NCBI GenBank assembly: GCA_938045545.1
Contig: CALIBN010000002.1
Coordinates: 8,120-72,119 of the forward strand
DNA from: an uncultured archaeon
Lineage (GTDB): Archaea; Thermoproteota; EX4484-205; JAAOZP01
Reading direction: 5' to 3'
Length of the DNA stretch: 64,000 nucleotides
Shown: positions 3,047 through 56,225 of the stretch, one piece after another
Layout of the letters: each line of letters opens with the position of its first letter
Position numbering within the stretch: the stretch's first letter is position 1
Notes under the pieces: model-generated
What the model was told of the DNA's origin: nothing
Database searches by the model: none
What the model saw: the letters and a program-made list of their open reading frames with translations, nothing else
Translations under genes and position numbers: made by a program

Positions 3047-3685
3047 CTATCTCCCAGTGGTCCAGATCCTCTGGAACTCCCTTTCGAGGGCCGTGGCCAG
3101 CTCCGCGCTTCGAATCACCAGCAAGTTCTCATTGTTATCTCGGTCTGCTGACGCAGTCCAATTGAAGCTGCCGATCAAGACTATGTGACCGTCGATTATC
3201 GCTACCTTGTGGTGCATGAGATTCGGGTTAGTGTCGTTCCTCACCTGGACTCCGGCTGCCTTCAGGCGGAAGTATTCGCTATACTTCGTAACTTGCTGCT
3301 CCTCGAACACGATCTTAACCTCTACCCCTCTTTGGTACGCAGCAAGAACCGCGTCGCCTATACTGTCGAGAGTGAAGCTATAGATCAGGACGTGGATGCT
3401 CAAGTTAGCCCTGTCCAGCCAGTGGATCAAGGTTGAAGCACATCCGCCCCTTGGAGAGAAGTAGACACCCAAGATTGAGACCTCAGGGACAGCTTCGGCA
3501 GCCTTCAGCGCTACTATCGTGGCGTTCAGCTCCTGAATCTCTTCATTCAGCCGCGAAATTTCGGCCTGAGCGGCACCTAGCTGAGACTGGAGGGAGCTGA
3601 TCTGAGATCCGGCGAGACCGAAGTATCCCAAGGCCACGCCGATTAGAAGCCCGCCAACGGCCAGCGCAATCACCTCATTTTTCAT
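3047..3685 (-). CDS. PLD-family (single HKD motif) nuclease, N-terminal membrane anchor plus coiled coil
   Basis: HHKVAIIDGHIVLIGSFNWT = HxK(x)4D(x)6GSxN motif; one copy only (Nuc/Zucchini-like dimeric nucleases); N-terminal hydrophobic helix ALAVGGLLIGVALGYFGLAG followed by heptad-like SSLQSQLGAAQAEISRLNEEIQELNATIVALKAAE. Confidence 0.7.
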   Translation of the reverse strand: MKNEVIALAVGGLLIGVALGYFGLAGSQISSLQSQLGAAQAEISRLNEEIQELNATIVALKAAEAVPEVSILGVYFSPRGGCASTLIHWLDRANLSIHVLIYSFTLDSIGDAVLAAYQRGVEVKIVFEEQQVTKYSEYFRLKAAGVQVRNDTNPNLMHHKVAIIDGHIVLIGSFNWTASADRDNNENLLVIRSAELATALEREFQRIWTTGR

Positions 3686-3920: not shown

Positions 3921-4811
3921 TTAGGTTTCAGATATTAGCTTCTTGATAAATTCCACGTCCTTTTTCAAAACAGTTTTTCTCTCTTCCCGACCATACTTTC
4001 CTAGAGACTCGTCTTCGATGGTTAAATCGCCAGCATACCCAGCTTTCCTCAAGACCTGAACGACCCTTTTCAAGTCAATATCTCCTTCGTACAGAGGTAC
4101 TGCAACCTGAGGAAAATCTATCCCAGGACGCCTCTGCTTTTCCCTCCTAGCTTCAGGATATTTTAAATTTTTAAGATGAGTATGTTTAACTAGTTTTGCA
4201 TACTTTTCTATGAGTTCATGAACCTTACTCAACGGATAACCATACCAATAGAAGTTTCCGGTGTCTAACGTCAAGCCTATTCTCTCATCATTCACCTCTT
4301 TAAAAGCATGGTCTAAAAATCGCTCATCGTTACTAACATAGCCGTGATTCTCTACAGCATAAGCTACGCTGCTGCCCCTCGTCTCTCTTAAAAGGGATTT
4401 CATTATTTTAACGAAGTGCTCAGCATACTCTTCAATTGGCTTCTCTCCCATTATTTGCATATGCGAGTTTATCCGTATCACTTCAACCCCGATTTCATCC
4501 GCAAGTTGTGTCGCCTTTTTAATATAATTCAGCTCCTCTTCCAGATTTTCACTTGAAAAATCATTTTCCAACAATATGGTGCACGGTTTTATACCCATAT
4601 TTTTAGAAAATTCTAAAAATTCTTTTCTTTCACGAGCGTCTCTCAGGTTAAAACCTAGCTTCACTATGTGGCCCATATCTTCATACGTGTCTTGAGTTAA
4701 TGTTTTGTTGACGTACATTTCATACCTATCTAAACCCAAGTCCTTTAAACCTTTAACGAGATCCTCGTAACCAACCCATACTACTGTGAAATCCCTTACT
4801 GAGACATACAT
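3921..4811 (-). CDS. sugar phosphate isomerase/epimerase (xylose isomerase-like TIM barrel) family protein
   Basis: 296 aa; ENHG…ND…LDTGNF pattern of AP-endonuclease-2/xylose-isomerase-like TIM barrels. Confidence 0.6.
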   Translation of the reverse strand: MYVSVRDFTVVWVGYEDLVKGLKDLGLDRYEMYVNKTLTQDTYEDMGHIVKLGFNLRDARERKEFLEFSKNMGIKPCTILLENDFSSENLEEELNYIKKATQLADEIGVEVIRINSHMQIMGEKPIEEYAEHFVKIMKSLLRETRGSSVAYAVENHGYVSNDERFLDHAFKEVNDERIGLTLDTGNFYWYGYPLSKVHELIEKYAKLVKHTHLKNLKYPEARREKQRRPGIDFPQVAVPLYEGDIDLKRVVQVLRKAGYAGDLTIEDESLGKYGREERKTVLKKDVEFIKKLISET

Positions 4812-5596: not shown

Positions 5597-6769
5597 TTAA
5601 GCCTTACTGGCTCCGGCTTCGAATACCCAGCTATCAAGGTTTTTACAAATTAATGTAAGGATCCGCATAGACTCCTCCGGTCTCATGGCGAGAAAAAGCG
5701 CGGCAACATGCTTGCAGAACTGTTTTTGACCAATTCTTTTAACCCAGTCCTCACAGTCATGCTTCAGCCTCCTGTTAGGAATATTTATGATGACAGCGTA
5801 TTCCTTAACCCTAGCTTTAACCTTCTCCTCTCCAGCCTCCTCAACAACCACTTTCCCAACCAGTTCCCTCGCCCTCTCCAGCCTACCCACCTCAAGGAAG
5901 GCTGAGACCAGTTTCTCAATGTCTTTTTCACCTGAAGAAAGCACTGCTTCAACCCTGCGAACCGTCCTCCTTAAACCCTGCTCTTCAAAGTAGTTTAGAA
6001 CCCTGTTCAAAGCCTCCTCCTGAGGCTTTTCCATGACTCCGACGATTCTCATCATTTGAAGCGCGTTCTTCACCGCATATCCCCTGAAGTGGTTGTTAAA
6101 ATAGACGTAAACCTTCTTAGCCTTGTACGAGAGCTCCTCAAGCTTTCCCTTCCACTCCTCAAGCTCCTCAATCCTGTAATCGTAATAGTACCAAGGCCTG
6201 TTCCCCCTGCCGTGAAACCTTACGTATGAAAAATCTCCCGTAACCTTCAACAATGCAGGCAGAAGAGGCTCGTCGACAATACAGTAACCCACATTGTTCT
6301 CGGACAGAACCCTGAAAGACTCATCCATCAGCCAAGTCGGATGCCTGAACTCGACAGTAAAATCGTAACCTTCAGGAAGGCTTTCTAAGAACTCTTTAAA
6401 GCCTTTGAAGGCTGCAACAGGCTTGGGTGGAAGCTGGAAAAGCAGTGGCCCAAGCTTCCCGTCTTCCTTGAGAGGAGCCAGCGCACTCAGGAAGAGCTTT
6501 AAATCCCTCAGAGCACCCTTCTCCAAATCCATTAGTTTCACGTGAGTCACTGTTTTAGGAACCTTAAGGGAAAATACGAAGCCTTTCGGCGAGGACCTGG
6601 CAATAGTACGTATGAATCCCAGGTTAGGCTGTTTATAGAAGGTTGAATCCACTTCAACCGTCTTGAAAACATCCGCATACTGCTGGAACATTTTCTCACT
6701 ACTTGTGTAGAACACAGTTAGCCAATCCTTATAGCTCCAGCCCGATGTCCCTACAACAATATTATCCAA
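5597..6769 (-). CDS. DUF72 (UPF0759) domain protein with C-terminal SWIM-like zinc-finger segment
   Basis: N-terminal VGTSGWSYKDW…FYTSS is the DUF72 signature; C-terminal …CEDWVKRIGQKQFCKHVAALFL resembles SWIM CxH-containing finger. Confidence 0.55.
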   Translation of the reverse strand: MDNIVVGTSGWSYKDWLTVFYTSSEKMFQQYADVFKTVEVDSTFYKQPNLGFIRTIARSSPKGFVFSLKVPKTVTHVKLMDLEKGALRDLKLFLSALAPLKEDGKLGPLLFQLPPKPVAAFKGFKEFLESLPEGYDFTVEFRHPTWLMDESFRVLSENNVGYCIVDEPLLPALLKVTGDFSYVRFHGRGNRPWYYYDYRIEELEEWKGKLEELSYKAKKVYVYFNNHFRGYAVKNALQMMRIVGVMEKPQEEALNRVLNYFEEQGLRRTVRRVEAVLSSGEKDIEKLVSAFLEVGRLERARELVGKVVVEEAGEEKVKARVKEYAVIINIPNRRLKHDCEDWVKRIGQKQFCKHVAALFLAMRPEESMRILTLICKNLDSWVFEAGASKA

Positions 6770-9271: not shown

Positions 9272-10270
9272 TCATTTGGACTCAATATAGTAGAGATCCT
9301 GCCTCGGATCCCTTATTAAAGGCCTTTTCTTGACGAAGTTGTTTCCGACAAGTATTGCGAGAGCGTGTCGCACAGTCCTCGCGGGGAGCATCGTCTTCTT
9401 AACAATGTCTTTCTGAGTTAAAGCCCCCTCGTATTCGAGAACCTTCAAAATTAGTTTAGCACTAGGAGGCAGACTGCTTATGTCGAGAGACATCCTAGCC
9501 TTCTTCTCGAGCCTTCTTGCGAGAAGCGCTTCGCTGAGCCTTACGAAGCCAGCGTCTTCACCCTTCTTAACGACGACCCTGTCAGTTATCCTCATTCTAT
9601 ACCCCCCATCCACGATTACTTCGCAAGCCGAATTGCTGACTATGTCTCGGATTTCTATGAGGCTTTCAATAGGAGTTACCAAGGGTCTTCTAGTAAGGTT
9701 TAAAGAGTTAACCGGGACTATGCCTACCACCTTGGCTTTCGGATGTATTATTGGTCCTCCTGTCGAAAGAGCATACGCCGTTGAACCTATGGGCGTGGAA
9801 ACTATCAGGCCGTCGCCTATATCCCTCCAGACGAACTCGCCGTCAACGTAAAGGCTGTATTCAAGTATTGTGGCACTTTTCCTCGGGAAGATTGCCAGCT
9901 CGTTTAGCGCACACGGTGTTTCAGAATCATCCACAACAGCCTTAAGCCTTGAAGAATACTCCACGCTATACTCTCTTCTTAGAAAAGCTCTTAAAGCGTC
10001 GCCGAGCCTCTCCAGCGTTGTCTCCATCAGGAAACTATTATTCTCAGTCTTGCTAACCCCCAGGATGAGCACATCCCTAGATTTCACGTGGTGTAACGCT
10101 TTCAGAACATCCTTATCCTCGCCCAAGACAAGGAGAAGACCCTCGTTAAGCTTCTCAAGCTCTTCGAGACGCTTGACGCGCGTAACCTCCGCCCCGACAC
10201 GATTAACTGTTCTCAAGCACTCCTTAAGGAGACCATGGTCGAACCCCGCTGGAGCTAACACTATGTTCAA
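9272..10270 (-). CDS. nadK: NAD(+) kinase fused to C-terminal winged helix-turn-helix domain; TTG start
   Basis: NELAIF and GDGLIVSTPIGSTAYALSTGGPI NadK motifs; GGDG box atypical (LGEDKD); last ~70 aa (…LILKVLEYEGALTQKDIVKKTMLPARTVRHALAILVGNNFVKKR…) is a MarR/TrmB-like wHTH; minus strand begins TTG AAC ATA GTG (LNIVL) with in-frame stop just upstream. Confidence 0.8.
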   Translation of the reverse strand: MNIVLAPAGFDHGLLKECLRTVNRVGAEVTRVKRLEELEKLNEGLLLVLGEDKDVLKALHHVKSRDVLILGVSKTENNSFLMETTLERLGDALRAFLRREYSVEYSSRLKAVVDDSETPCALNELAIFPRKSATILEYSLYVDGEFVWRDIGDGLIVSTPIGSTAYALSTGGPIIHPKAKVVGIVPVNSLNLTRRPLVTPIESLIEIRDIVSNSACEVIVDGGYRMRITDRVVVKKGEDAGFVRLSEALLARRLEKKARMSLDISSLPPSAKLILKVLEYEGALTQKDIVKKTMLPARTVRHALAILVGNNFVKKRPLIRDPRQDLYYIESK

Positions 10271-10422
10271 CTGGTTTCAGTAGTGTGTTAGAAGGGCTAT
10301 TTATTGCTTTCAGCAGTTTAAAAACGTTGCAACTCTATTTTGCCTCTTAATGAAGCACCTATGCAATTATTGCCTTAATAGAACCCCTTAAATAAGAGGG
10401 TTTTAGGCTTCAAGAGAAGCTG
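10271..10422. promoter_or_regulatory. divergent nadK / nadA promoter region with palindromes GTTGCAAC (10326-10333) and GCAATtATTGC (10363-10373), TATA-like TTAAATA ~30 bp before nadA ATG
   Basis: AT-rich 152-bp spacer between divergently oriented genes; perfect short inverted repeats seen directly. Confidence 0.35.
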
Positions 10423-11358
10423 ATGGAAAACCTTAGCCGTAAAATACGGGAAAAGGCGAGAGACATCGGGGCCATAGTATTAGCCCATAATTATCAGAGG
10501 CCTGAGGTGCAGGATGTTGCTGATTTCGTCGGCGACAGCCTGGAACTTTCGGTCAAAGCCATGGAGACCGACGCGAAAACTATAGTTTTCGCAGGCGTAG
10601 ATTTCATGGTTGAGCAGGCGGCTGTGCTGAACCCTAGTAAGACAGTGTTAACGCCTGAGCCAAGCTCCATCTGCCCGATGGCTTGGCAGCTTGACCCGCC
10701 AGTGGTTGAAGAATATCGTAGGAGAAACCCGGATGCACCACTAGTAGTTTACGTGAATTCATTCGTCGAAGTAAAGTCTATGGCTGACTACGTGGTTACC
10801 AGCAGCAGTGCCTCTAGGCTGGTTTCGAAGCTTGACGCTGGGAAAATCCTTTTCGGACCGGATAGGAATCTAGCGTCCTACGTTGCTGAAACCACTGGGA
10901 AGGAGGTTATCGCTGTTCCACTTAACAGCTACTGCCCGGTTCACATAGGGATCACACCGGATAAAATATTATCTGTTAAGGAAAGGATGCCGGATGCGAA
11001 GGTACTTGTGCATCCGGAGTGCCCGCCTGAAACAAGGAGGCTGGCGGATTTCGTGGGCAGCACTAGCCAAATAATAAGAGCAGTGGGAGAGATTGATGCA
11101 AAGCGTTTTATAATAGGCACTGAGAACGGGGTGATTCACAGAATTTCAAAGCTTTATTCCGGTAAGGAGGCTTATCCTGTCAGTAAAGACACGATATGCC
11201 CCAACATGAAGAAGATAACGCTTGAAAAAGTATACAGGAGCCTCGTTAGCGGCGAGACTCTTGTAAAGATCGATGAGAAGCTTGCTGAAAAGGCTAGGAG
11301 AGTTCTTGAAAGAAGCTTTACTCTTCTGGGGGTTGAGACACCTTGGTCGAGGAAGTAG
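10423..11358 (+). CDS. nadA: quinolinate synthase
   Basis: LAHNYQ, GVDFMVE, three conserved Cys-containing segments (…ICPM…, …YCPVH…, …ECP…) typical of NadA. Confidence 0.9.
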   Translation: MENLSRKIREKARDIGAIVLAHNYQRPEVQDVADFVGDSLELSVKAMETDAKTIVFAGVDFMVEQAAVLNPSKTVLTPEPSSICPMAWQLDPPVVEEYRRRNPDAPLVVYVNSFVEVKSMADYVVTSSSASRLVSKLDAGKILFGPDRNLASYVAETTGKEVIAVPLNSYCPVHIGITPDKILSVKERMPDAKVLVHPECPPETRRLADFVGSTSQIIRAVGEIDAKRFIIGTENGVIHRISKLYSGKEAYPVSKDTICPNMKKITLEKVYRSLVSGETLVKIDEKLAEKARRVLERSFTLLGVETPWSRK

Positions 11359-12197
11359 TTTTCAGAAAATTTATCGAGTGGCTCTCCGAGGATATTCCCT
11401 ATTGGGACGTGACCTCCGAGATAATACCTCCGCAAGTAACGTGCGAGGCGGTTGTAATAGCTAAGGAGGAGGGCGTTGCAGCCTGCTGTGAGGATCTTGC
11501 TATGATACTTGAGAAGATGGGTTTCACGGTTAGGGTTTTAAAGAAGAGCGGTGAGGAATTCGGAAAATGGGATCAAGTAATGTGGATTAAAGGCAATATG
11601 CGTAGGCTCATGGAGATCGAACGACTATTGCTGAACATTCTCTCCCAAGCCTTCGGAGTGGCAACGCTAACCAAGGCCTTTGTCGAGAAGGCTAGAAGAA
11701 TAAACCCGAACCTGAAGATAGCTGCAACTAGGAAGGTTAAACCCGGCTTCCAGTATTTCGAGAAAAAGGCTATTGCAGCCGCGGGCGGGGACACTCATAG
11801 GCTGAACCTGTCAGACATGATTCTCATCAAGGAAAACCATCTAAAGTATTTCAACTCGGTTGGTGAAGCTGTTAAGAAGGCTAGGGAACTGGCGAGCTTC
11901 AGCAAGAAGATAGAGATCGAAGTGGCTGAGGCTGAGGACGCTGTGGAAGCTGCTGAGGCGGGTGCAGACATAATCATGCTTGACAATTGCACCCCTGAAA
12001 AAGTAAGGAGGACGATTGAAATGCTTAGAGAGAAAGGGTTAAGAAGCAGGGTTCTAGTAGAGGTCTCCGGCGGAGTGAAGCTTGAAAATCTTGAAGAATA
12101 TGTGGAAGCCGGCCCGGATATAATAAGCTCAGGAGAGCTAACGCATTCAGCGAAAGCAGTAGACATATCGCTCGAAGTCACGAGGGTTGAGAAATGA
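11343..12197 (+). CDS. nadC: nicotinate-nucleotide pyrophosphorylase (quinolinate phosphoribosyltransferase)
   Basis: Type II PRTase pattern (…IAATRKVKPGFQYFEKKAIAAAGGDTHR…MLDN…); overlaps nadA by 16 bp. Confidence 0.9.
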   Translation: MVEEVVFRKFIEWLSEDIPYWDVTSEIIPPQVTCEAVVIAKEEGVAACCEDLAMILEKMGFTVRVLKKSGEEFGKWDQVMWIKGNMRRLMEIERLLLNILSQAFGVATLTKAFVEKARRINPNLKIAATRKVKPGFQYFEKKAIAAAGGDTHRLNLSDMILIKENHLKYFNSVGEAVKKARELASFSKKIEIEVAEAEDAVEAAEAGADIIMLDNCTPEKVRRTIEMLREKGLRSRVLVEVSGGVKLENLEEYVEAGPDIISSGELTHSAKAVDISLEVTRVEK

Positions 12198-12979
12198 AGA
12201 GGATAGGGTTGATAGGGTGTGGTGCAATAGGCTCCCTCATAGCCACGGCTGTGGACGAGGGCAAGGTTAACGCGAAGCTGGTTTATGTCTACGATTCTCG
12301 TAAGGAGGCTGCATCGAAGCTGGTTGAGAAGCTGAGGAGCAAGCCGAAGGTTCTGGAAGGAATAGAGGAGATGTTGAAAGACAGGAGGCTCGAAGTTATC
12401 GTCGAGGCTGCAAGCGACGAGGCCGTTCTAAAATACCTTAAGCCCATCGTTGAAGCCGGGAAAGAGGTTCTCGTGATGAGCATAGGAGGGCTTCTTTTCC
12501 CTGAGACAAGGAAAATATATGAGGAAAACACTCGCAGAATACATGTTCCGGCTGGAGCAATCGCTGGACTGGATGCTATCCAAGCCATAAGCCTAGTCGG
12601 CGTGGACAGGATGGTTTTAACCACGAGGAAGCCTCCGGAAGCATTAGCCTATTCCAACTATTTCAAGGAGAAGGGGATTGAACTAGATAAAATCAGGGAG
12701 CCCACGCTGGTTTACGAGGGGCCCGTGGAAGACGCTTTAACGCATTTCCCAAAAAGCGTGAACGTGGCGGCAGCGCTAGCCTTATACTCTAAGTCAGGGG
12801 TTCTAGTTAGAATAATAGCAGACCCAACCAGGAAAGAGATAATGCACGAGATAGATGTTGAGTCAAAGGTTTCCAATCTAAGGATACTGGTTGAGAATGT
12901 TCCGCACCCGGATAACCCTAAGACAAGCTATCTGGCTGCATTATCCTGTATTCAGAAGCTTAGAGAGATTTGTGGCTGA
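12194..12979 (+). CDS. nadX: L-aspartate dehydrogenase
   Basis: MKRIGLIGCGAIG Rossmann start and …HVPAGAIAGLDAI… block of NadX family; ATGA overlap with nadC; substitutes for NadB in archaea/Thermotoga. Confidence 0.85.
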   Translation: MKRIGLIGCGAIGSLIATAVDEGKVNAKLVYVYDSRKEAASKLVEKLRSKPKVLEGIEEMLKDRRLEVIVEAASDEAVLKYLKPIVEAGKEVLVMSIGGLLFPETRKIYEENTRRIHVPAGAIAGLDAIQAISLVGVDRMVLTTRKPPEALAYSNYFKEKGIELDKIREPTLVYEGPVEDALTHFPKSVNVAAALALYSKSGVLVRIIADPTRKEIMHEIDVESKVSNLRILVENVPHPDNPKTSYLAALSCIQKLREICG

Positions 12980-13028: not shown

Positions 13029-13069
13029 CCCGTTTGAGAAAGATTCTCGAAAGCCGAGAAGAGATAGTT

Positions 13070-14617
13070 ATGGGTAATAATGCGGTTAAAGTCTATGTTC
13101 TAGACCCTGCTTCAATACTTACCGGAGTGGCTGCTAGAGCAGTTGAAAACGGTGAGGTAACTGGGAGGATAATAGTGCATAAGGCCATTGTCTCGGAATT
13201 CGAGAGAAAAGCCAGATTCGGCGATGAAACAGGGTTAAATGGCTTAAAATCCCTTAAGGACGCAGCTTCGGAGAAAGGGCTGGAGGTCGAGTTTATAGGC
13301 TCTTCCAATACTCCCGAAGAGGTTTCAACAGTTCTCAGAGATCTAGCGATGAACACAAGAGGCACTCTCGTTTCATGCGACCCGGTTTTGACTAAGACTG
13401 CAAGAGCAATGGGGATTGAGGCAATCTACCTAAGCCCGGTTGGAAAGGCTAAGCTTGAAGAGTTCTTTAAACCAGGCATAATGTCTATACATCTCAAGGA
13501 GAACGTTATCCCGAAGGCTAAGGAAGGGATTCCTGGCAGATGGGTTTACAGAGATGTTGGAGAGAAACCAATCAGTAAGTCTGAGCTTGAGTCAATAATA
13601 GCTGACATAATGGAGAGAGTCCAGTTTACAAACCAAGGCTTTGTGGAAATAGACAAGTCTGGCTCGACAATAATACAGCTTAAAGACCTTAGGATAGTCA
13701 TTACTCGACCACCCTTCTCAGACGGGCTTGAAATAACCGCTGTTAAACCACTCATTAAGAGAAGCCTTGAGGAGTATAATTTGGAGGTAAAGCTTATTGA
13801 GAGGCTTAAGACTCAGGCTGAAGGAATACTCATAGCTGGGGCACCTGGAATGGGAAAGTCCACTTTCGCCCAAGCCCTGGCAGAGTTCTACAGGTCGATG
13901 AACAAGGTTGTTAAAACAATAGAAAGTCCGAGAGACCTTCAACTCCCTCCTGACGTGACACAGTATTCTAAGACAGCAGCAGAGCCCAGTGAGCTTCACG
14001 ACGTATTACTGTTAAGCAGACCGGACTACACGATATACGATGAGCTTAGAGATACTAATGACTTCAACATTTTCATAGACCTTAGGCTTGCGGGCATAGG
14101 AATGGTCGGCGTCATACATGCTACAACACCCATGGATGCTATTCAACGCTTCACCGGGAGGACTGACCTTGGGCTCATACCCTCTATCATAGACACAGTC
14201 ATATTTATGAAGGAGGGCGAGGTTTCGAAAATATACACGCTTGAAACAGTTGTGAAGATCCCTAAGGGAATGAGAAACGCGGACCTAGCTAGGCCGACGA
14301 TAGTCGTTAAAAACTTCTTGACGGGGGAGGCGGAGTACGAGCTCTACGTCTTCGGAGAACAAACTTTCATAGTCCCGGTTCGCAAGAAGAAGACAGGATA
14401 TGAAGAGAAGCTTAAGGAGGAAGTGCAGGCGATAGTGCGCAACCAGGTTTCAGACTTCGACGTCAGGATTGAGGGAGACAGTTTGATCCTGTATGTAAAT
14501 AAGGAGGACATCCCCACACTCGTCAAGAAGTACAATAAGAAGCTCAACAGGTTTGCGAAAAGAATAAACATGAACATTGAGATAAGCCCACAGAATAGGC
14601 ATGAAAACAAATACTGA
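13070..14617 (+). CDS. COG1855-type ATPase: N-terminal PIN domain + PilT/PhoH-like P-loop ATPase + C-terminal KH-like domain (ORF track start 13034 is TTG inside promoter; ATG 13070 preferred)
   Basis: VKVYVLDPASIL (PIN), GAPGMGKST Walker A, conserved archaeal architecture. Confidence 0.8.
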   Translation: MGNNAVKVYVLDPASILTGVAARAVENGEVTGRIIVHKAIVSEFERKARFGDETGLNGLKSLKDAASEKGLEVEFIGSSNTPEEVSTVLRDLAMNTRGTLVSCDPVLTKTARAMGIEAIYLSPVGKAKLEEFFKPGIMSIHLKENVIPKAKEGIPGRWVYRDVGEKPISKSELESIIADIMERVQFTNQGFVEIDKSGSTIIQLKDLRIVITRPPFSDGLEITAVKPLIKRSLEEYNLEVKLIERLKTQAEGILIAGAPGMGKSTFAQALAEFYRSMNKVVKTIESPRDLQLPPDVTQYSKTAAEPSELHDVLLLSRPDYTIYDELRDTNDFNIFIDLRLAGIGMVGVIHATTPMDAIQRFTGRTDLGLIPSIIDTVIFMKEGEVSKIYTLETVVKIPKGMRNADLARPTIVVKNFLTGEAEYELYVFGEQTFIVPVRKKKTGYEEKLKEEVQAIVRNQVSDFDVRIEGDSLILYVNKEDIPTLVKKYNKKLNRFAKRINMNIEISPQNRHENKY

Positions 14618-29122: not shown

Positions 29123-31087
29123 AAACATGTTCTTCCCATAGTAGGTCAGGAAGGCGCCTATGGCCTCGCCGGCCCCTACGTTCGAAGAGACAACGGGCGT
29201 GGCCATTATTCCGACATCCCCTCGGGCAATCTTTCCCGTTACAGCACTCATGCACTCCCAGACGCTCGGATGCTTCAAGAGGAATCTCACCATCGAATCT
29301 TTCACCGCCTCTAAGAGGTCAGGATAGTAGTTGAAAGCCGCGGCCACCGCTAGGGAGCACGATTTCGTCCATGCCGGCCCCCTCCAGTAAACCTCCTCCT
29401 CAAACCCGGGCTGGCCCGGAGCGAGGGTGAAAACCCCGTATTCACCTATCAGTTTGAGGAAATTCTTCCTGGCTCGCTGAGCCTTTTCCGAGTCAACCAG
29501 CCCATAAGCGAATGGAAAGAGTCCGTCCACGCCTATCCTAGTATCCAGCGAACCATCCTGGTGAAGGACGCCGTACCAGTCTAAGCCTTCGTCCCAGAGG
29601 ATGCGATCCATGGTCTGCCTAGTTTTCTCGGCCAGCCTAAACCATGTGTGCTCCTCACCGTTCTCAAGGATTCCGGCTATTCTGCCCATTGCTTGCTCGA
29701 AACGGCATTTTTCAGCCGCGAAGATGGTAGGATAGCAGAAATCCTCCCTCCCTCTAGAGTCGCCATAGGTCACTTTCTGAAACGCTGGGAAAGTATCCAG
29801 CCCGGTATCAAAAGACGTGAGAATAGCCCAGAGGCCCATCCTATGTAGCCTAGCATCCCGAGACTCGTTGAGATAGTTGTAGTACTTCACCAGCCTAGGA
29901 TACCATGCTTTAATACTTTTGAGATCTTTAGTAGCATAGTAGTATCTCAGCACGACCCATGGAATGTGAGGAGTCTGAATAATATTTTTCCTGCTCCACG
30001 TTTCACCCGGAGTTCTCTCGCTGAGGTAAATTGCATGCGTAGTATAACCGTCTTCCCTCTGGTGTTTGAAAAATAAGTTCAGAAGGTTTTTGACGAAGCT
30101 AGGTCCTATTTCCGGGTTAAGCATCGAATGCCACTCGATAGCAGGAAGGGCCCATTGCCAATAGCCGCGGTAAACCGGTAGGGCTTCCAGAACGGTTTTT
30201 CCCAAACGTGGATGCTTATAGTAGTTTAACCTCACGTTCCACCAGCATTTATAGTACGCCTTTCTATCCGCCTCGGCTTCAAAACTCGGTGCGGGTAGAG
30301 AGTTGAACCATTTATTCCACTTCGCCCTAATGCTTGCAACAGGGTTCTTCAGCTTCAGCGCTTTAGCTGCTTTCTCGGGAGACTGGAAGCTTATCCCGAA
30401 CACAAGGCGGTCTCGCCCCCCCGATTTCAGAGCAATATTGTTTTCAAAAACAATATGACGCCCGGTTTTCCTACGTACATGAATAGTGCCCTTCTCCAAG
30501 TCGCCGAGGTATTCCTCTTCAGAAGAGTACACGCCGTAGTTGCTTGACTCGAAAGCTAAGAACAAGCTTTTCTTCCCAAGATGGATTTTTAGAATATTCT
30601 TAGAGTTTTTGCTTACCCTTGCGGAGGAACCTCTCAGAGAAACAACAGTGTAGAATTTTCTGTTCACGCTGTATGGCGGGTGGCATCTGGCTTCAAGAAT
30701 AATCCTCCAGAAGAAGCCTCCATTCGGACACTGGCCGAACAGCTCAGTAGCCTCAATCCCAACGTTTGAGAAAACGATTTCCCTCTTTACGAAGGAGGGT
30801 TGATACTCCATAGTCTTAAAGTAGAAAACGTTCTTAGCCAGCCTTCGGCCTGACAGATCTGGAAAAACATATTCTCCGAATTTTAAAGCAGCTACAGGTG
30901 TCTCTTCATAAGTCGTTTCCTCCCTGTTATCTAAGAGCCAACCGATAGATCCGAATTCAGAGGGATATGCGAAGGAAATAGAGAAATCCTCTTCCTTCAC
31001 GAGGATGGCGGTACGCCGGGGCAGTTTCTCATTAAAACCCTCTTTCACCAGATCCCAGAAATCCTGTCTTCTTGAAGACATCCTCAA
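29105..31087 (-). CDS. (alpha/alpha)6-barrel glycoside hydrolase, GH63 / amylo-alpha-1,6-glucosidase (GDE_C)-like
   Basis: 660 aa; W/Y-rich helical repeats (…YYKCWWNVRLNYY…, …RGPAWTKSCSLAVAAAFNYY…) characteristic of six-hairpin glycosidases. Confidence 0.5.
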   Translation of the reverse strand: MRMSSRRQDFWDLVKEGFNEKLPRRTAILVKEEDFSISFAYPSEFGSIGWLLDNREETTYEETPVAALKFGEYVFPDLSGRRLAKNVFYFKTMEYQPSFVKREIVFSNVGIEATELFGQCPNGGFFWRIILEARCHPPYSVNRKFYTVVSLRGSSARVSKNSKNILKIHLGKKSLFLAFESSNYGVYSSEEEYLGDLEKGTIHVRRKTGRHIVFENNIALKSGGRDRLVFGISFQSPEKAAKALKLKNPVASIRAKWNKWFNSLPAPSFEAEADRKAYYKCWWNVRLNYYKHPRLGKTVLEALPVYRGYWQWALPAIEWHSMLNPEIGPSFVKNLLNLFFKHQREDGYTTHAIYLSERTPGETWSRKNIIQTPHIPWVVLRYYYATKDLKSIKAWYPRLVKYYNYLNESRDARLHRMGLWAILTSFDTGLDTFPAFQKVTYGDSRGREDFCYPTIFAAEKCRFEQAMGRIAGILENGEEHTWFRLAEKTRQTMDRILWDEGLDWYGVLHQDGSLDTRIGVDGLFPFAYGLVDSEKAQRARKNFLKLIGEYGVFTLAPGQPGFEEEVYWRGPAWTKSCSLAVAAAFNYYPDLLEAVKDSMVRFLLKHPSVWECMSAVTGKIARGDVGIMATPVVSSNVGAGEAIGAFLTYYGKNMFSIEPT

Positions 31088-37146: not shown

Positions 37147-37379
37147 AGTCCCTTTTTCAAAACTCTTCCCTCCTCATCAAGCTCAATCATCAAGAATAAG
37201 GGGGCTCTGGCCAAAATGTTCGGATAAGCGTGAATCTAAGCCACGGTCATCCTCCACAGGTATTACAATCCTCATTTTGAATCATCATGCTTACATACTT
37301 GTCTCTATATACGTCTTACTGTTAATAGACCTCCTCTATTCCTTTTTGTCCAAGGAATCCTTATCCTAGACAATTACTT

Positions 37380-37733
37380 CCTTAACTCCTCAAGCCTATT
37401 GTTTACGTAACCGAGCTCCTGCTGGATAAGCCTTCTCTGTTCCTCAGAAAAACAACTCTTGCTCCCTAGCCGTCAGGGGTAAGGCAAACATCGGTGGCTC
37501 ATACTCATGCTCCCCGCGGAGCCCATGAAAAACCCACAGGTATAGCTTCCAGAAACGCCGAGCGTAATTATGACGGTAGGGCGATGGCAGCCACCAGAAC
37601 CCGCTCGCAATATCAGTACTCCTACTTACCGACCCCCCTTAACGCTTAATTCTTCAAGCCTTTTTCTAACGGTTTTCAACCGAGGCTCCAAAATCTTAAT
37701 CTGCTGCTCAAGCATCGTTCGCTCCTGCTCCCC
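37380..37733. repeat. two diverged direct copies (~70% identity, ~95 bp each, 37380-37466 and 37637-37733) of an element beginning CCTTAAC…TCAAGCCT…
   Basis: Direct alignment of the two segments; on the minus strand each copy encodes a similar coiled-coil-like peptide (…EEQRRLIQQELGYVNNRLEELRK / …EQERTMLEQQIKILEPRLKTVRKRLEELSVK) in different frames. Confidence 0.5.
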
Positions 37734-37995
37734 GCATAAGCCGGCGGAAAGCTCATTCTAAACGGAGTGAGTTCAGACGGCATAGCGTGCTAAAGGGCTT
37801 TCGCAAAGGGAAGCAGGAGGAGGATGGGCGTCTCTAGGGGGATTGCGTGAGGCTTTTGCAGAGCGCTAGGAGAAAGACTGCTCAAGCCCTTAGCGAAGGC
37901 AAGCCAATACGCATTGGGCTCCCCCCTCAACAAAACTGTTCATAGAAAACATGGAAGACAATGTCAAACAGGCTTTTCTAAGAGCATTCTCACAG

Positions 37996-55847: not shown

Positions 55848-56225
55848 ATGCGCGTTAAAAGTTCTAACATGCTACCGGTGGATGTTCCAGTAATCCTCTT
55901 CAGCACTACGCAGTCCATAACACTATTCTGGGCAATGGATAAGGCTACCAGAATAGTTCTAAACAGGGTTAAAACCAAGAATTACGCGTTCTCAGTAAGG
56001 GGGCTTAGAATCCACCACTGGCTGATCGGCGCAATAGTTGCTGCACTCGGCCTATTAGTCTTTTCAGCCCAAAATCTAGTGATACTCATATATGAGACAA
56101 GCCTTAGCAGCATCCCCTGGAAGCTTGGTTCAAGCACTGTAACCGTGGGATTCAGGATTTTCCTAGATGATTTAAAGGATTTGAAAAGGCAGTTTAAGAG
56201 CTTAATCAGGATGGTAAAAAGATAA
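55848..56225 (+). CDS. hypothetical small protein with one predicted TM helix
   Basis: ORF only; HHWLIGAIVAALGLLVF hydrophobic segment. Confidence 0.3.
   Translation: MRVKSSNMLPVDVPVILFSTTQSITLFWAMDKATRIVLNRVKTKNYAFSVRGLRIHHWLIGAIVAALGLLVFSAQNLVILIYETSLSSIPWKLGSSTVTVGFRIFLDDLKDLKRQFKSLIRMVKR

Follow-up and report, generated by a model that had tools for sequence, protein, structure and literature searches.

An archaeal NAD kinase with a C-terminal winged helix-turn-helix domain is a probable regulator of NAD metabolism

Introduction

Why should an archaeal NAD kinase end in a domain of the winged helix-turn-helix (wHTH) type, and why should its gene be transcribed away from an operon for de novo NAD synthesis? 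The question is raised by a 64,000-nucleotide stretch of DNA from an uncultured archaeon of the Thermoproteota (assembly GCA_938045545.1, contig CALIBN010000002.1), referred to here as the window. The protein in question, NadK-wHTH, is encoded on the minus strand of the window, and the nadA-nadC-nadX operon begins on the plus strand at the other end of a short spacer. An earlier note, made from the sequence of the window, had proposed an enzyme-regulator fusion tied to NAD biosynthesis. NadK-wHTH is probably a regulator of NAD metabolism in archaea of a previously undescribed kind, because its tail is predicted to be a MarR-type wHTH, NAD-related genes recur as its divergent neighbours, and a palindrome is conserved across phyla in the spacers concerned. 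With moderate confidence, the protein can be regarded as a trigger enzyme, in which an NAD-kinase fold is joined to a MarR-type wHTH that would bind the palindrome GGCAA-N3-TTGCC. Within the proposal of the earlier note, the fold of the tail, the NAD-related neighbours and one palindrome are borne out, and two of the three DNA elements that it offered as operators are not conserved.

The regulation of NAD biosynthesis in archaea appears to have been undescribed so far. No NAD-kinase-wHTH regulator and no archaeal NAD regulon was found described in the full texts searched, subscription-only literature aside, and NadR, NiaR and NrtR were found described for bacteria only.

A MarR-type winged helix at the end of an NAD kinase

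The earlier note had read the gene as nadK with a MarR-like wHTH at the C-terminus, and Pfam, AlphaFold2 and Foldseek agree on this architecture. The Pfam model PF20143 (NAD_kinase_C) matches residues 122-235 at 4.5e-27, and the wHTH models HTH_9, MarR_2 and MarR match residues ~267-323 at 2.5e-5, 1.6e-3 and 2.2e-3, respectively. Solved NAD kinases (7mh7, 4hao, 1u0r and 1suw) match NadK-wHTH by sequence at E values of ~1e-25. The full-length AlphaFold2 model, built with 87 homologues (predicted local distance difference test score, pLDDT, 89; predicted template modelling score, pTM, 0.79), contains a two-domain kinase fold at residues 1-244 and was found by Foldseek to superpose on solved NAD kinases with TMt values of up to 0.87 (A. 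fulgidus 1SUW). None of the superposed NAD kinase structures has a wHTH tail.

The tail itself is predicted to fold as a MarR-type wHTH; a C-terminal extension that took no such fold had been named in the earlier note as a refuting outcome, and the models show the opposite. In the model, helix H1 (residues 269-281) is followed by a short strand, helix H2 (286-293), the recognition helix H3 (297-309) and two wing strands (314-317 and 325-328); modelled alone, the tail reaches a pLDDT of 90. A Foldseek search of the PDB with the tail returned MarR-family proteins, many of them complexed with operator DNA, at TMq values of 0.70-0.75, and a tail profile matched the MarR protein 3G3Z and the archaeal wHTH proteins 1SFX and 2D1H among PDB sequences at ~2e-4. 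The RDxRQ motif of the family aligns to the D-x-R of the MarR wing. The dimerisation helices of MarR are absent from the model, in which one linker helix (residues 249-265) precedes the wHTH and nothing follows the wing.

The tail is also the best conserved region of NadK-wHTH in alignments of 24 and 87 members. In the 87-member alignment, the mean majority-residue frequency was 0.705 for the wHTH tail, 0.63 for the kinase C-domain and 0.40 for the N-domain. R298 and T299, both in the recognition helix, occur in 87/87 sequences and R301, in the same helix, in 83/87. The tail signature reads LPPSAKLILKVLEYEGPLTQKD..KTMLPxRTVRxAL..L..KG.V......RDxRQ.LY. When a profile of the tail alone was run against 1.84 billion representatives, 605 matches were obtained at E <= 1e-10; the best 150 of these comprise 43 fusions and ~95 stand-alone proteins (64-150 aa) in which the signature is also present, so the tail derives from a family of small archaeal wHTH proteins.

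Some members of that small family may be described separately. Stand-alone proteins of ~80-100 aa (P0165, P0183, P0176, P0191, P0163 and P0169; also L113, 4965-5210) carry the signature PPSAK...RTVRYAL...DARQ.LY. Many of the stand-alone tail-like proteins look haloarchaeal, being acidic, and one lies on an IMG/VR viral contig. P0161, a protein of 684 aa, has a tail-type wHTH domain at its N-terminus.

One conserved palindrome in the spacer shared with nadA

The divergent arrangement of nadK-wHTH and the nadA-nadC-nadX operon, with a 152-bp AT-rich spacer between them, was part of the earlier description and is confirmed by the open reading frames (ORFs) and curated family matches; the spacer (10271-10422) has an AT content of 62.5% vs 53.5% for the window. 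Footprinting by alignment of 12 orthologous spacers (mean column identity 71%) revealed four invariant blocks, all listed in Table 1. Judging by position and sequence, the block nearest the kinase gene is a putative TATA box of nadK-wHTH, and the block nearest the operon is putatively the transcription factor B recognition element (BRE) and TATA box of nadA. Between them lie an auxiliary half-site and a candidate operator. The latter is located upstream of both promoters, its end 5 bp from the nadA promoter block and its position ~60 bp from the kinase-gene TATA box.

Three DNA motifs had been put forward as possible operator elements in the earlier note. All three exist in the spacer where they had been placed; only the palindrome GCAAT-t-ATTGC, which falls within the candidate operator, is conserved. 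The palindrome GTTGCAAC (10326-10333) is rejected as an operator, having already been lost in relatives with a 93%-identical protein. Also rejected is TTATTGC (10301-10307 and 10368-10374) as a repeated half-site, since its first copy overlaps the kinase-gene TATA box and its G is not conserved, most relatives having ACAAT. An RNA element or riboswitch was considered as well: Rfam gave no match in the spacer at E <= 1, nor did the window as a whole have one at gathering score.

Within the window, the core GCAA-N3-TTGC occurs in 2 copies vs 1.0 expected, and the lack of enrichment there would be in keeping with coincidence. The exact core at 56031, inside a membrane-protein ORF, is taken as a chance occurrence, as are the one-mismatch 13-mers at 29225, 31183, 37012 and 39556, in or beside a glycoside hydrolase, a DUF362 gene and a methyltransferase.

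Recurrence of the palindrome across phyla

Is the palindrome more than a coincidence of an AT-rich promoter region and inherited synteny? In the close relatives of the window protein (71-94% identity; L081-L085 and L093-L103), the divergent nadA-nadC-nadX operon is kept, and so is the wider neighbourhood, well beyond the nad genes; these loci are therefore not independent evidence, and their synteny is what coincidence would predict. The upstream spacers of distant, non-syntenic fusion loci were scanned for GCAA-N3-TTGC. In 16 representative lineages, with 1,987 nt of spacer in total, six perfect cores were observed, the one in the window included, vs 0.083 expected from the rest of the same loci (10 in 238 kb; Poisson P = 4e-10). 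When the spacers were shuffled 20,000 times with dinucleotides preserved, the mean was 0.058 cores and the maximum 2. No copy was found in 30 kb upstream of 68 canonical, tail-less nadK genes. The half-site GGCAA/TTGCC was ~7-fold enriched (17 in 1,205 nt of fusion spacers vs 2.3 expected). Perfect sites were found in 6/9 lineages with an NAD-related divergent neighbour and in 0/9 of the others. Given this recurrence in non-syntenic lineages, and given the four kinds of NAD-related neighbours in lineages with differing flanks, a chance origin of palindrome and neighbourhood is already disfavoured and can be considered very improbable.

Because the motif had been taken from the palindrome of the window itself, the clean test is provided by the five other loci. 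With the window excluded and the related loci L008 and L110 merged, four independent lineages have the site, vs ~0.07 expected. The site of L089, L091 and L106 falls within the interval from the fusion gene's putative TATA box to its start codon.

An additional GGCAA half-site was observed at 29-30 bp from the palindrome half of the same orientation in the window clade, L008, L110, L106 and L001 (coordinates in Table 1). This spacing may hint at tetramer binding, although the window clade and the other lineages differ in geometry.

Spread of the fusion and its neighbouring genes

A search of 5.8 billion proteins yielded more than 100 proteins of ~330 aa with the NadK-wHTH architecture, from TACK and Asgard archaea. 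The carriers include Thermoproteota, Brockarchaeota (73% identity), Aigarchaeota, Nitrososphaerota including marine ammonia oxidisers, Njordarchaeia, Thorarchaeota and Metallosphaera; in the ammonia oxidisers, NadK-wHTH looks like a core gene. In a scan of genome contigs, the fusion was present in 12/80 loci, bacterial NadK dominating, and a metagenome scan returned close relatives only.

The earlier note had asked whether orthologs share the tail and the divergent arrangement. The tail is shared by all of these fusions, and NAD-related genes adjoin the fusion gene in several non-syntenic lineages (Table 1). The arrangement is not general: no NAD gene adjoins the fusion gene in the Aigarchaeota (L086), the Calditenuaceae (L111), Metallosphaera (L088), L012 or the ammonia oxidisers. 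A fusion found everywhere and never next to nad genes had been named as the contrary outcome; the fusion is indeed widespread, and it is repeatedly adjacent to NAD genes, of four kinds, in lineages with differing flanks.

One kind of neighbour is a gene from the major facilitator superfamily (MFS). In L089, L106 and L001, the MFS proteins belong to the aromatic-acid/H+ symporter family TIGR00895 (1e-78 to 1e-82). The niacin transporter NiaP has been reported to be most similar to the PcaK/BenK-like MFS family (PMC2330245), and the three proteins are candidate archaeal niacin (NiaP-like) transporters on the basis of their family assignment.

In ammonia oxidisers (L005, 4968-5843 and 6871-8061; also L006, L007 and L010), a PfkB-family kinase gene is followed after a gap of ~30 nt by nadK-wHTH and then by a convergent pyrG.

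Proposed mechanism of regulation

The size of the palindrome fits a wHTH dimer, and the palindrome is conserved together with the recognition helix across phyla. In the proposed mechanism, the wHTH would bind the palindrome in the divergent promoter region common to nadK-wHTH and nadA-nadC-nadX, and the bound protein would be NadK-wHTH itself, not another factor. The binding form would be an oligomer, dimeric or tetrameric, as NAD kinases are themselves dimers or tetramers and the tail is without MarR dimerisation helices. The affinity for DNA may be set by whether NAD(H)/NADP(H) and/or ATP occupies the kinase domain, the effector presumably being a pyridine nucleotide. The cofactor status would thereby be fed back on de novo NAD synthesis in the window, on genes for the salvage or uptake of niacin in other lineages, and on the expression of NadK-wHTH itself.

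The region between TATA box and start is a classic place for autorepression. Repression is favoured, by analogy with NadR, NiaR and NrtR and because three lineages have the site in this region of the fusion gene; the position just upstream of the BRE in the window would also be compatible with activation.

Several observations weigh against the regulatory reading or narrow it. The tail passes the Pfam gathering score of HTH_9 (24.7 vs 23.4) and falls below those of MarR_2 (19.0 vs 27) and MarR (18.3 vs 24.6). The five loci of the clean test amount to about four independent lineages, since L008 and L110 are related. L111 and L112, which were examined after the motif had been fixed, have no palindrome, and none was found upstream of the fusion gene in the ammonia oxidisers, Aigarchaeota, Metallosphaera and L012; any sites of the first three would be located in other parts of their genomes. 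L003 has only an N4-spaced variant and L108 only half-sites. In addition, the placement of the site relative to the promoters varies, from beside the BRE/TATA of nadA in the window to the TATA-to-start interval in L089, L091 and L106, so a single mode of action is not established.

Could NadK-wHTH be an enzyme only? It would then be the cell's NAD kinase, with the wHTH serving oligomerisation, protein contact or non-specific tethering to the nucleoid, and the palindrome would be the operator of another NAD regulator that has the kinase gene among its targets. Pathway genes often cluster without a regulatory tie, about half of the lineages examined have no palindrome upstream of the fusion gene, and the link between tail and DNA is predicted rather than experimental, all of which is in line with such a role. 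The conservation pattern argues otherwise, the tail being the most conserved part of the protein with its peak in the recognition helix and wing. The tail family also exists as stand-alone small wHTH proteins; a conserved recognition helix and a cross-phylum motif are what would be expected of cognate partners; and in all cases seen the motif adjoins the fusion gene, whereas it adjoins none of the 68 canonical nadK genes. A purely enzymatic role is therefore considered quite unlikely, and the trigger-enzyme reading is retained.

Is the kinase domain still active?

The earlier note had taken the GEDKD box, which aligns to GGDGS of Pseudomonas aeruginosa NadK, as a sign of reduced kinase activity in favour of a sensor role. 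This interpretation does not hold against the family alignment. Across the 87 fusion proteins, G50 and D52 are invariant (87/87), position 51 varies among G, E, S, D and T, and 69/87 have R or K at position 53, with Gly there in only 8; GxD[RK]x is, from the aligned sequences, a hallmark of the whole fusion family and not a peculiarity of the window gene. D52 corresponds to the catalytic Asp of NAD kinases. N123, D153, G154, T159, G162, S163, Y166, S169, G171 and G172 are invariant in the 87 family members, as is D150, and the NE motif and the GSTAY-GGP NAD-binding motif (DGxxxSTPxGSTAYxxSxGGP) are kept. NadK-wHTH is likely to be still an active kinase, given that neither the catalytic Asp nor the NAD-binding motifs vary.

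Taken further, that suggestion would mean that NadK-wHTH binds DNA and has lost catalysis altogether, its kinase domain having become an NAD(P)-binding effector domain, as Nudix has in NrtR, while a separate NAD kinase makes NADP. Besides the loss of the canonical GGDG, the databases offer some grounds for this: the Pfam N-domain model PF01513 matches neither the window protein nor its close clade, and the many NCBIfam NadK models that match residues ~20-260 all stay far under cutoff, the best being NF002984 with 140.9 bits vs 326. Sulfolobus solfataricus has a stand-alone NAD kinase, SSO2219, of 27.9 kDa (PMC6105217), and therefore at least one order, the Sulfolobales, has a canonical enzyme with which the fusion could coexist as a paralogue. 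Against the loss of catalysis stand the invariant D52 and G50 and the retained NE and GSTAY-GGP motifs, and the deviation from GGDG is family-wide, the ammonia oxidisers included. The N-domain of the window clade is about as conserved as that of other clades at matched C-domain divergence (0.57 vs 0.55; 0.64 vs 0.74), with no clear signal of relaxed constraint. No second nadK was found within the 64-kb window, which carries little weight for the whole genome. A catalytically dead sensor is accordingly considered unlikely, and a trigger enzyme that would combine kinase activity with DNA binding remains the preferred reading.

Comparison with known trigger enzymes and NAD regulators

The closest paradigm for NadK-wHTH is RbkR, the archaeal riboflavin kinase/regulator (Rodionova et al., 2017, PMC5397151). 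Both proteins combine a kinase of a cofactor pathway with a MarR-like wHTH, as a trigger enzyme does. RbkR binds palindromic sites upstream of its own gene and of cofactor biosynthesis and transport genes, binding that has been shown for RbkR and is predicted for NadK-wHTH, and it occurs in Crenarchaeota and Thaumarchaeota (PMC5397151). The enzymatic folds are unrelated, RbkR having a CTP-dependent RibK and NadK-wHTH the NadK/DAGK-like fold, and the wHTH is N-terminal in RbkR but C-terminal in NadK-wHTH. The DNA motifs of RbkR are highly variable between lineages (PMC5397151), whereas the tail and motif core of NadK-wHTH are conserved across phyla. RbkR is backed by electrophoretic mobility shift and kinase assays and by a structure (PMC5397151), whereas NadK-wHTH is known from sequence and models. 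NadR and BirA have been named as further trigger enzymes (PMC5397151). The features of such an enzyme that are present in NadK-wHTH are an enzyme and a DNA-binding domain in one polypeptide and a candidate operator in the spacers shared with nadA, pncB or NiaP-like genes at 6 loci.

NadR and NrtR, to which the earlier note had likened NadK-wHTH in logic while calling it unrelated in sequence, are indeed analogues only: neither the nicotinamide mononucleotide adenylyltransferase (NMNAT)/ribosylnicotinamide kinase (RNK) domains of NadR, the Nudix domain of NrtR nor the 3H domain of NiaR has a Pfam or NCBIfam match in NadK-wHTH. NadR of Enterobacteria, composed of an HTH, an NMNAT and an RNK, is, like NadK-wHTH as read here, an enzyme fused to a regulator that acts on NAD synthesis, salvage and transport genes. 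It responds to pyridine-nucleotide status, and nadA and niacin transporters belong to its regulons (PMC2330245, PMC5397151). Unlike NadK-wHTH, to which it shows no relation in sequence or fold, NadR is bacterial, has an N-terminal HTH and other enzyme activities, and recognises the operator TGTTTA-N6-TAAACA. NrtR shares with NadK-wHTH an enzyme-like effector domain at the N-terminus and a winged helix at the C-terminus, and it regulates NAD genes, often adjacent to its own (PMC2330246). Its effector domain is a Nudix domain that is usually catalytically dead and has ADP-ribose as effector, and the bacterial protein is unrelated in sequence to NadK-wHTH.

With canonical NAD kinases (PpnK/NadK, such as A. 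fulgidus 1SUW and M. tuberculosis 1U0R), NadK-wHTH has in common the two-domain fold, the catalytic Asp, the NE motif and GSTAY-x-S-x-GGP. The canonical enzymes have GGDG and no DNA-binding domain, whereas NadK-wHTH has GxD[RK]x and lies far under every curated NadK equivalog cutoff. The tail resembles MarR-family and small archaeal wHTH proteins (AF2008, 1SFX; ST1889, 2D1H; the MepR and OhrR complexes with DNA) in its H1-b1-H2-H3-wing topology, in the D-x-R of the wing and in its palindromic target, which is a candidate in the case of NadK-wHTH. True MarR proteins have N- and C-terminal dimerisation helices; without these, dimerisation of NadK-wHTH would need the kinase body.

What would the trigger-enzyme reading imply, if true? 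NadK-wHTH would be the second archaeal cofactor kinase that doubles as a transcription factor of its pathway, after RbkR. It would come with a testable operator and a candidate regulon that spans de novo synthesis, salvage and uptake, and with a candidate archaeal niacin transporter. Feedback would be placed at the branch point from NAD to NADP, where no NAD regulator is known to act. For a wider proposal the balance is about even: that NadK-wHTH is an ancient NAD-responsive transcription factor and enzyme that predates the split of TACK and Asgard archaea, with a recognition helix and an operator core nearly unchanged across phyla, which would be unusual in a regulator of metabolism; that it would be the first transcription factor of archaeal NAD metabolism; and that it controls nadACX, pncB and probably the NiaP-like MFS genes. 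Annotation would also improve, as many database entries name NadK-wHTH proteins only 'NAD kinase' or 'sugar kinase'.

Coordinates and other features of the window

Table 1. Features of the window, followed by sites and neighbouring genes at fusion loci of other lineages (positions refer to the sequence named in the row or, if none is named, to the window)
Feature	Position	Strand or orientation	Remarks
nadK-wHTH gene	9272-10270	-	332 aa, TTG start; Pfam and NCBIfam matches, AlphaFold2 model
NAD-kinase part, residues 1-245	9536-10270	-	Rossmann-like N-domain and beta-sandwich C-domain; PDB sequence and Foldseek matches
GEDKD box, residues 50-54	10109-10123	-	at the position of the canonical GGDG(T) motif
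Linker helix, residues 249-265	9476-9526	-	kinase to wHTH; DSSP on model
wHTH, residues 267-330	9281-9472	-	models, Foldseek, profile against PDB sequences
Putative TATA box of nadK-wHTH	10298-10304	-	TATTTAT (TAAATA on minus strand); invariant; ~30 nt upstream of start codon
Auxiliary half-site	10338-10344		TTTTGCC (GGCAAAA on minus strand); invariant in 12 spacers; extra half-site of the window
Candidate operator	10362-10374		TGCAATTATTGCC, also written (T)GCAATTATTGCC or (TG)CAATTATTGCC; GGCAA-N3-TTGC on minus strand; invariant in 12 spacers
GCAAT-t-ATTGC palindrome	10363-10373		GCAATTATTGC
Putative BRE/TATA of nadA	about 10380-10395	+	AGAACCCC-TTAAATAA, also AGAACC-CTTAAATA; invariant; 35 nt upstream of ATG
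nadA-nadC-nadX operon	10423-12979	+	stop and start codons overlap
nadA, quinolinate synthase	10423-11358	+	PF02445 3e-103; NF006878 370 bits, cutoff 294
nadC, quinolinate phosphoribosyltransferase	11343-12197	+	TIGR00078 293 bits, cutoff 198
nadX, aspartate dehydrogenase	12194-12979	+	TIGR03855 214 bits, cutoff 207
L089 site	26 nt upstream of ATG		GGCAATAATTGCC
L091 site	26 nt upstream of start codon		TGCAAATTTTGCC
L106/L107 site	21 nt upstream of start codon		AGCAATTGTTGCC
L008 site	in spacer		GGCAACATTTGCC
L110 site	in spacer		GGCAACAATTGCC
L001 site			AGAAATTGTTGCC; one-mismatch copy
L003 site	between nadA TATA and nadA start		GCAAGCCCTTGC; N4 variant
L008 extra half-site	5754-5758
L110 extra half-site	5886-5890
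L106 extra half-site	4313-4317
L001 extra half-site	3283-3287
L003, nadA-C-X		divergent	Thermofilaceae, 42% identity
L108/L109, nadA-C-X		divergent	P0072 clade; TrkAH flanks (different flanking genes)
L008, L110, nadA		divergent	Thor-type
L091/L092, nicotinate phosphoribosyltransferase		divergent	Njordarchaeia; NF006415, 441 bits vs cutoff 243
L112, PncB-like gene		downstream, same strand	Asgard-like
L089, L106/L107, L001, MFS transporter, PcaK-like	L089 4583-5887; L106 2872-4254; L001 1835-3229	divergent	Thermoprotei and Nitrososphaerota-related

Three further features of the window may be mentioned. At 37147-37995, a stretch of ~850 nt holds no ORF of at least 70 aa and no tRNA, and Rfam gave no match there at gathering score. 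On the minus strand at 5597-6769, a DUF72 protein of 390 aa has a C-terminal extension of ~150 aa with the Cys/His motif HDCEDW...FCKH, an extension that is covered by no Pfam match. Directly 3' of nadX (13034-14617, plus strand), a T2SSE/PilT-like ATPase of 527 aa is encoded, and the same gene order is found in the relatives L082 and L083.

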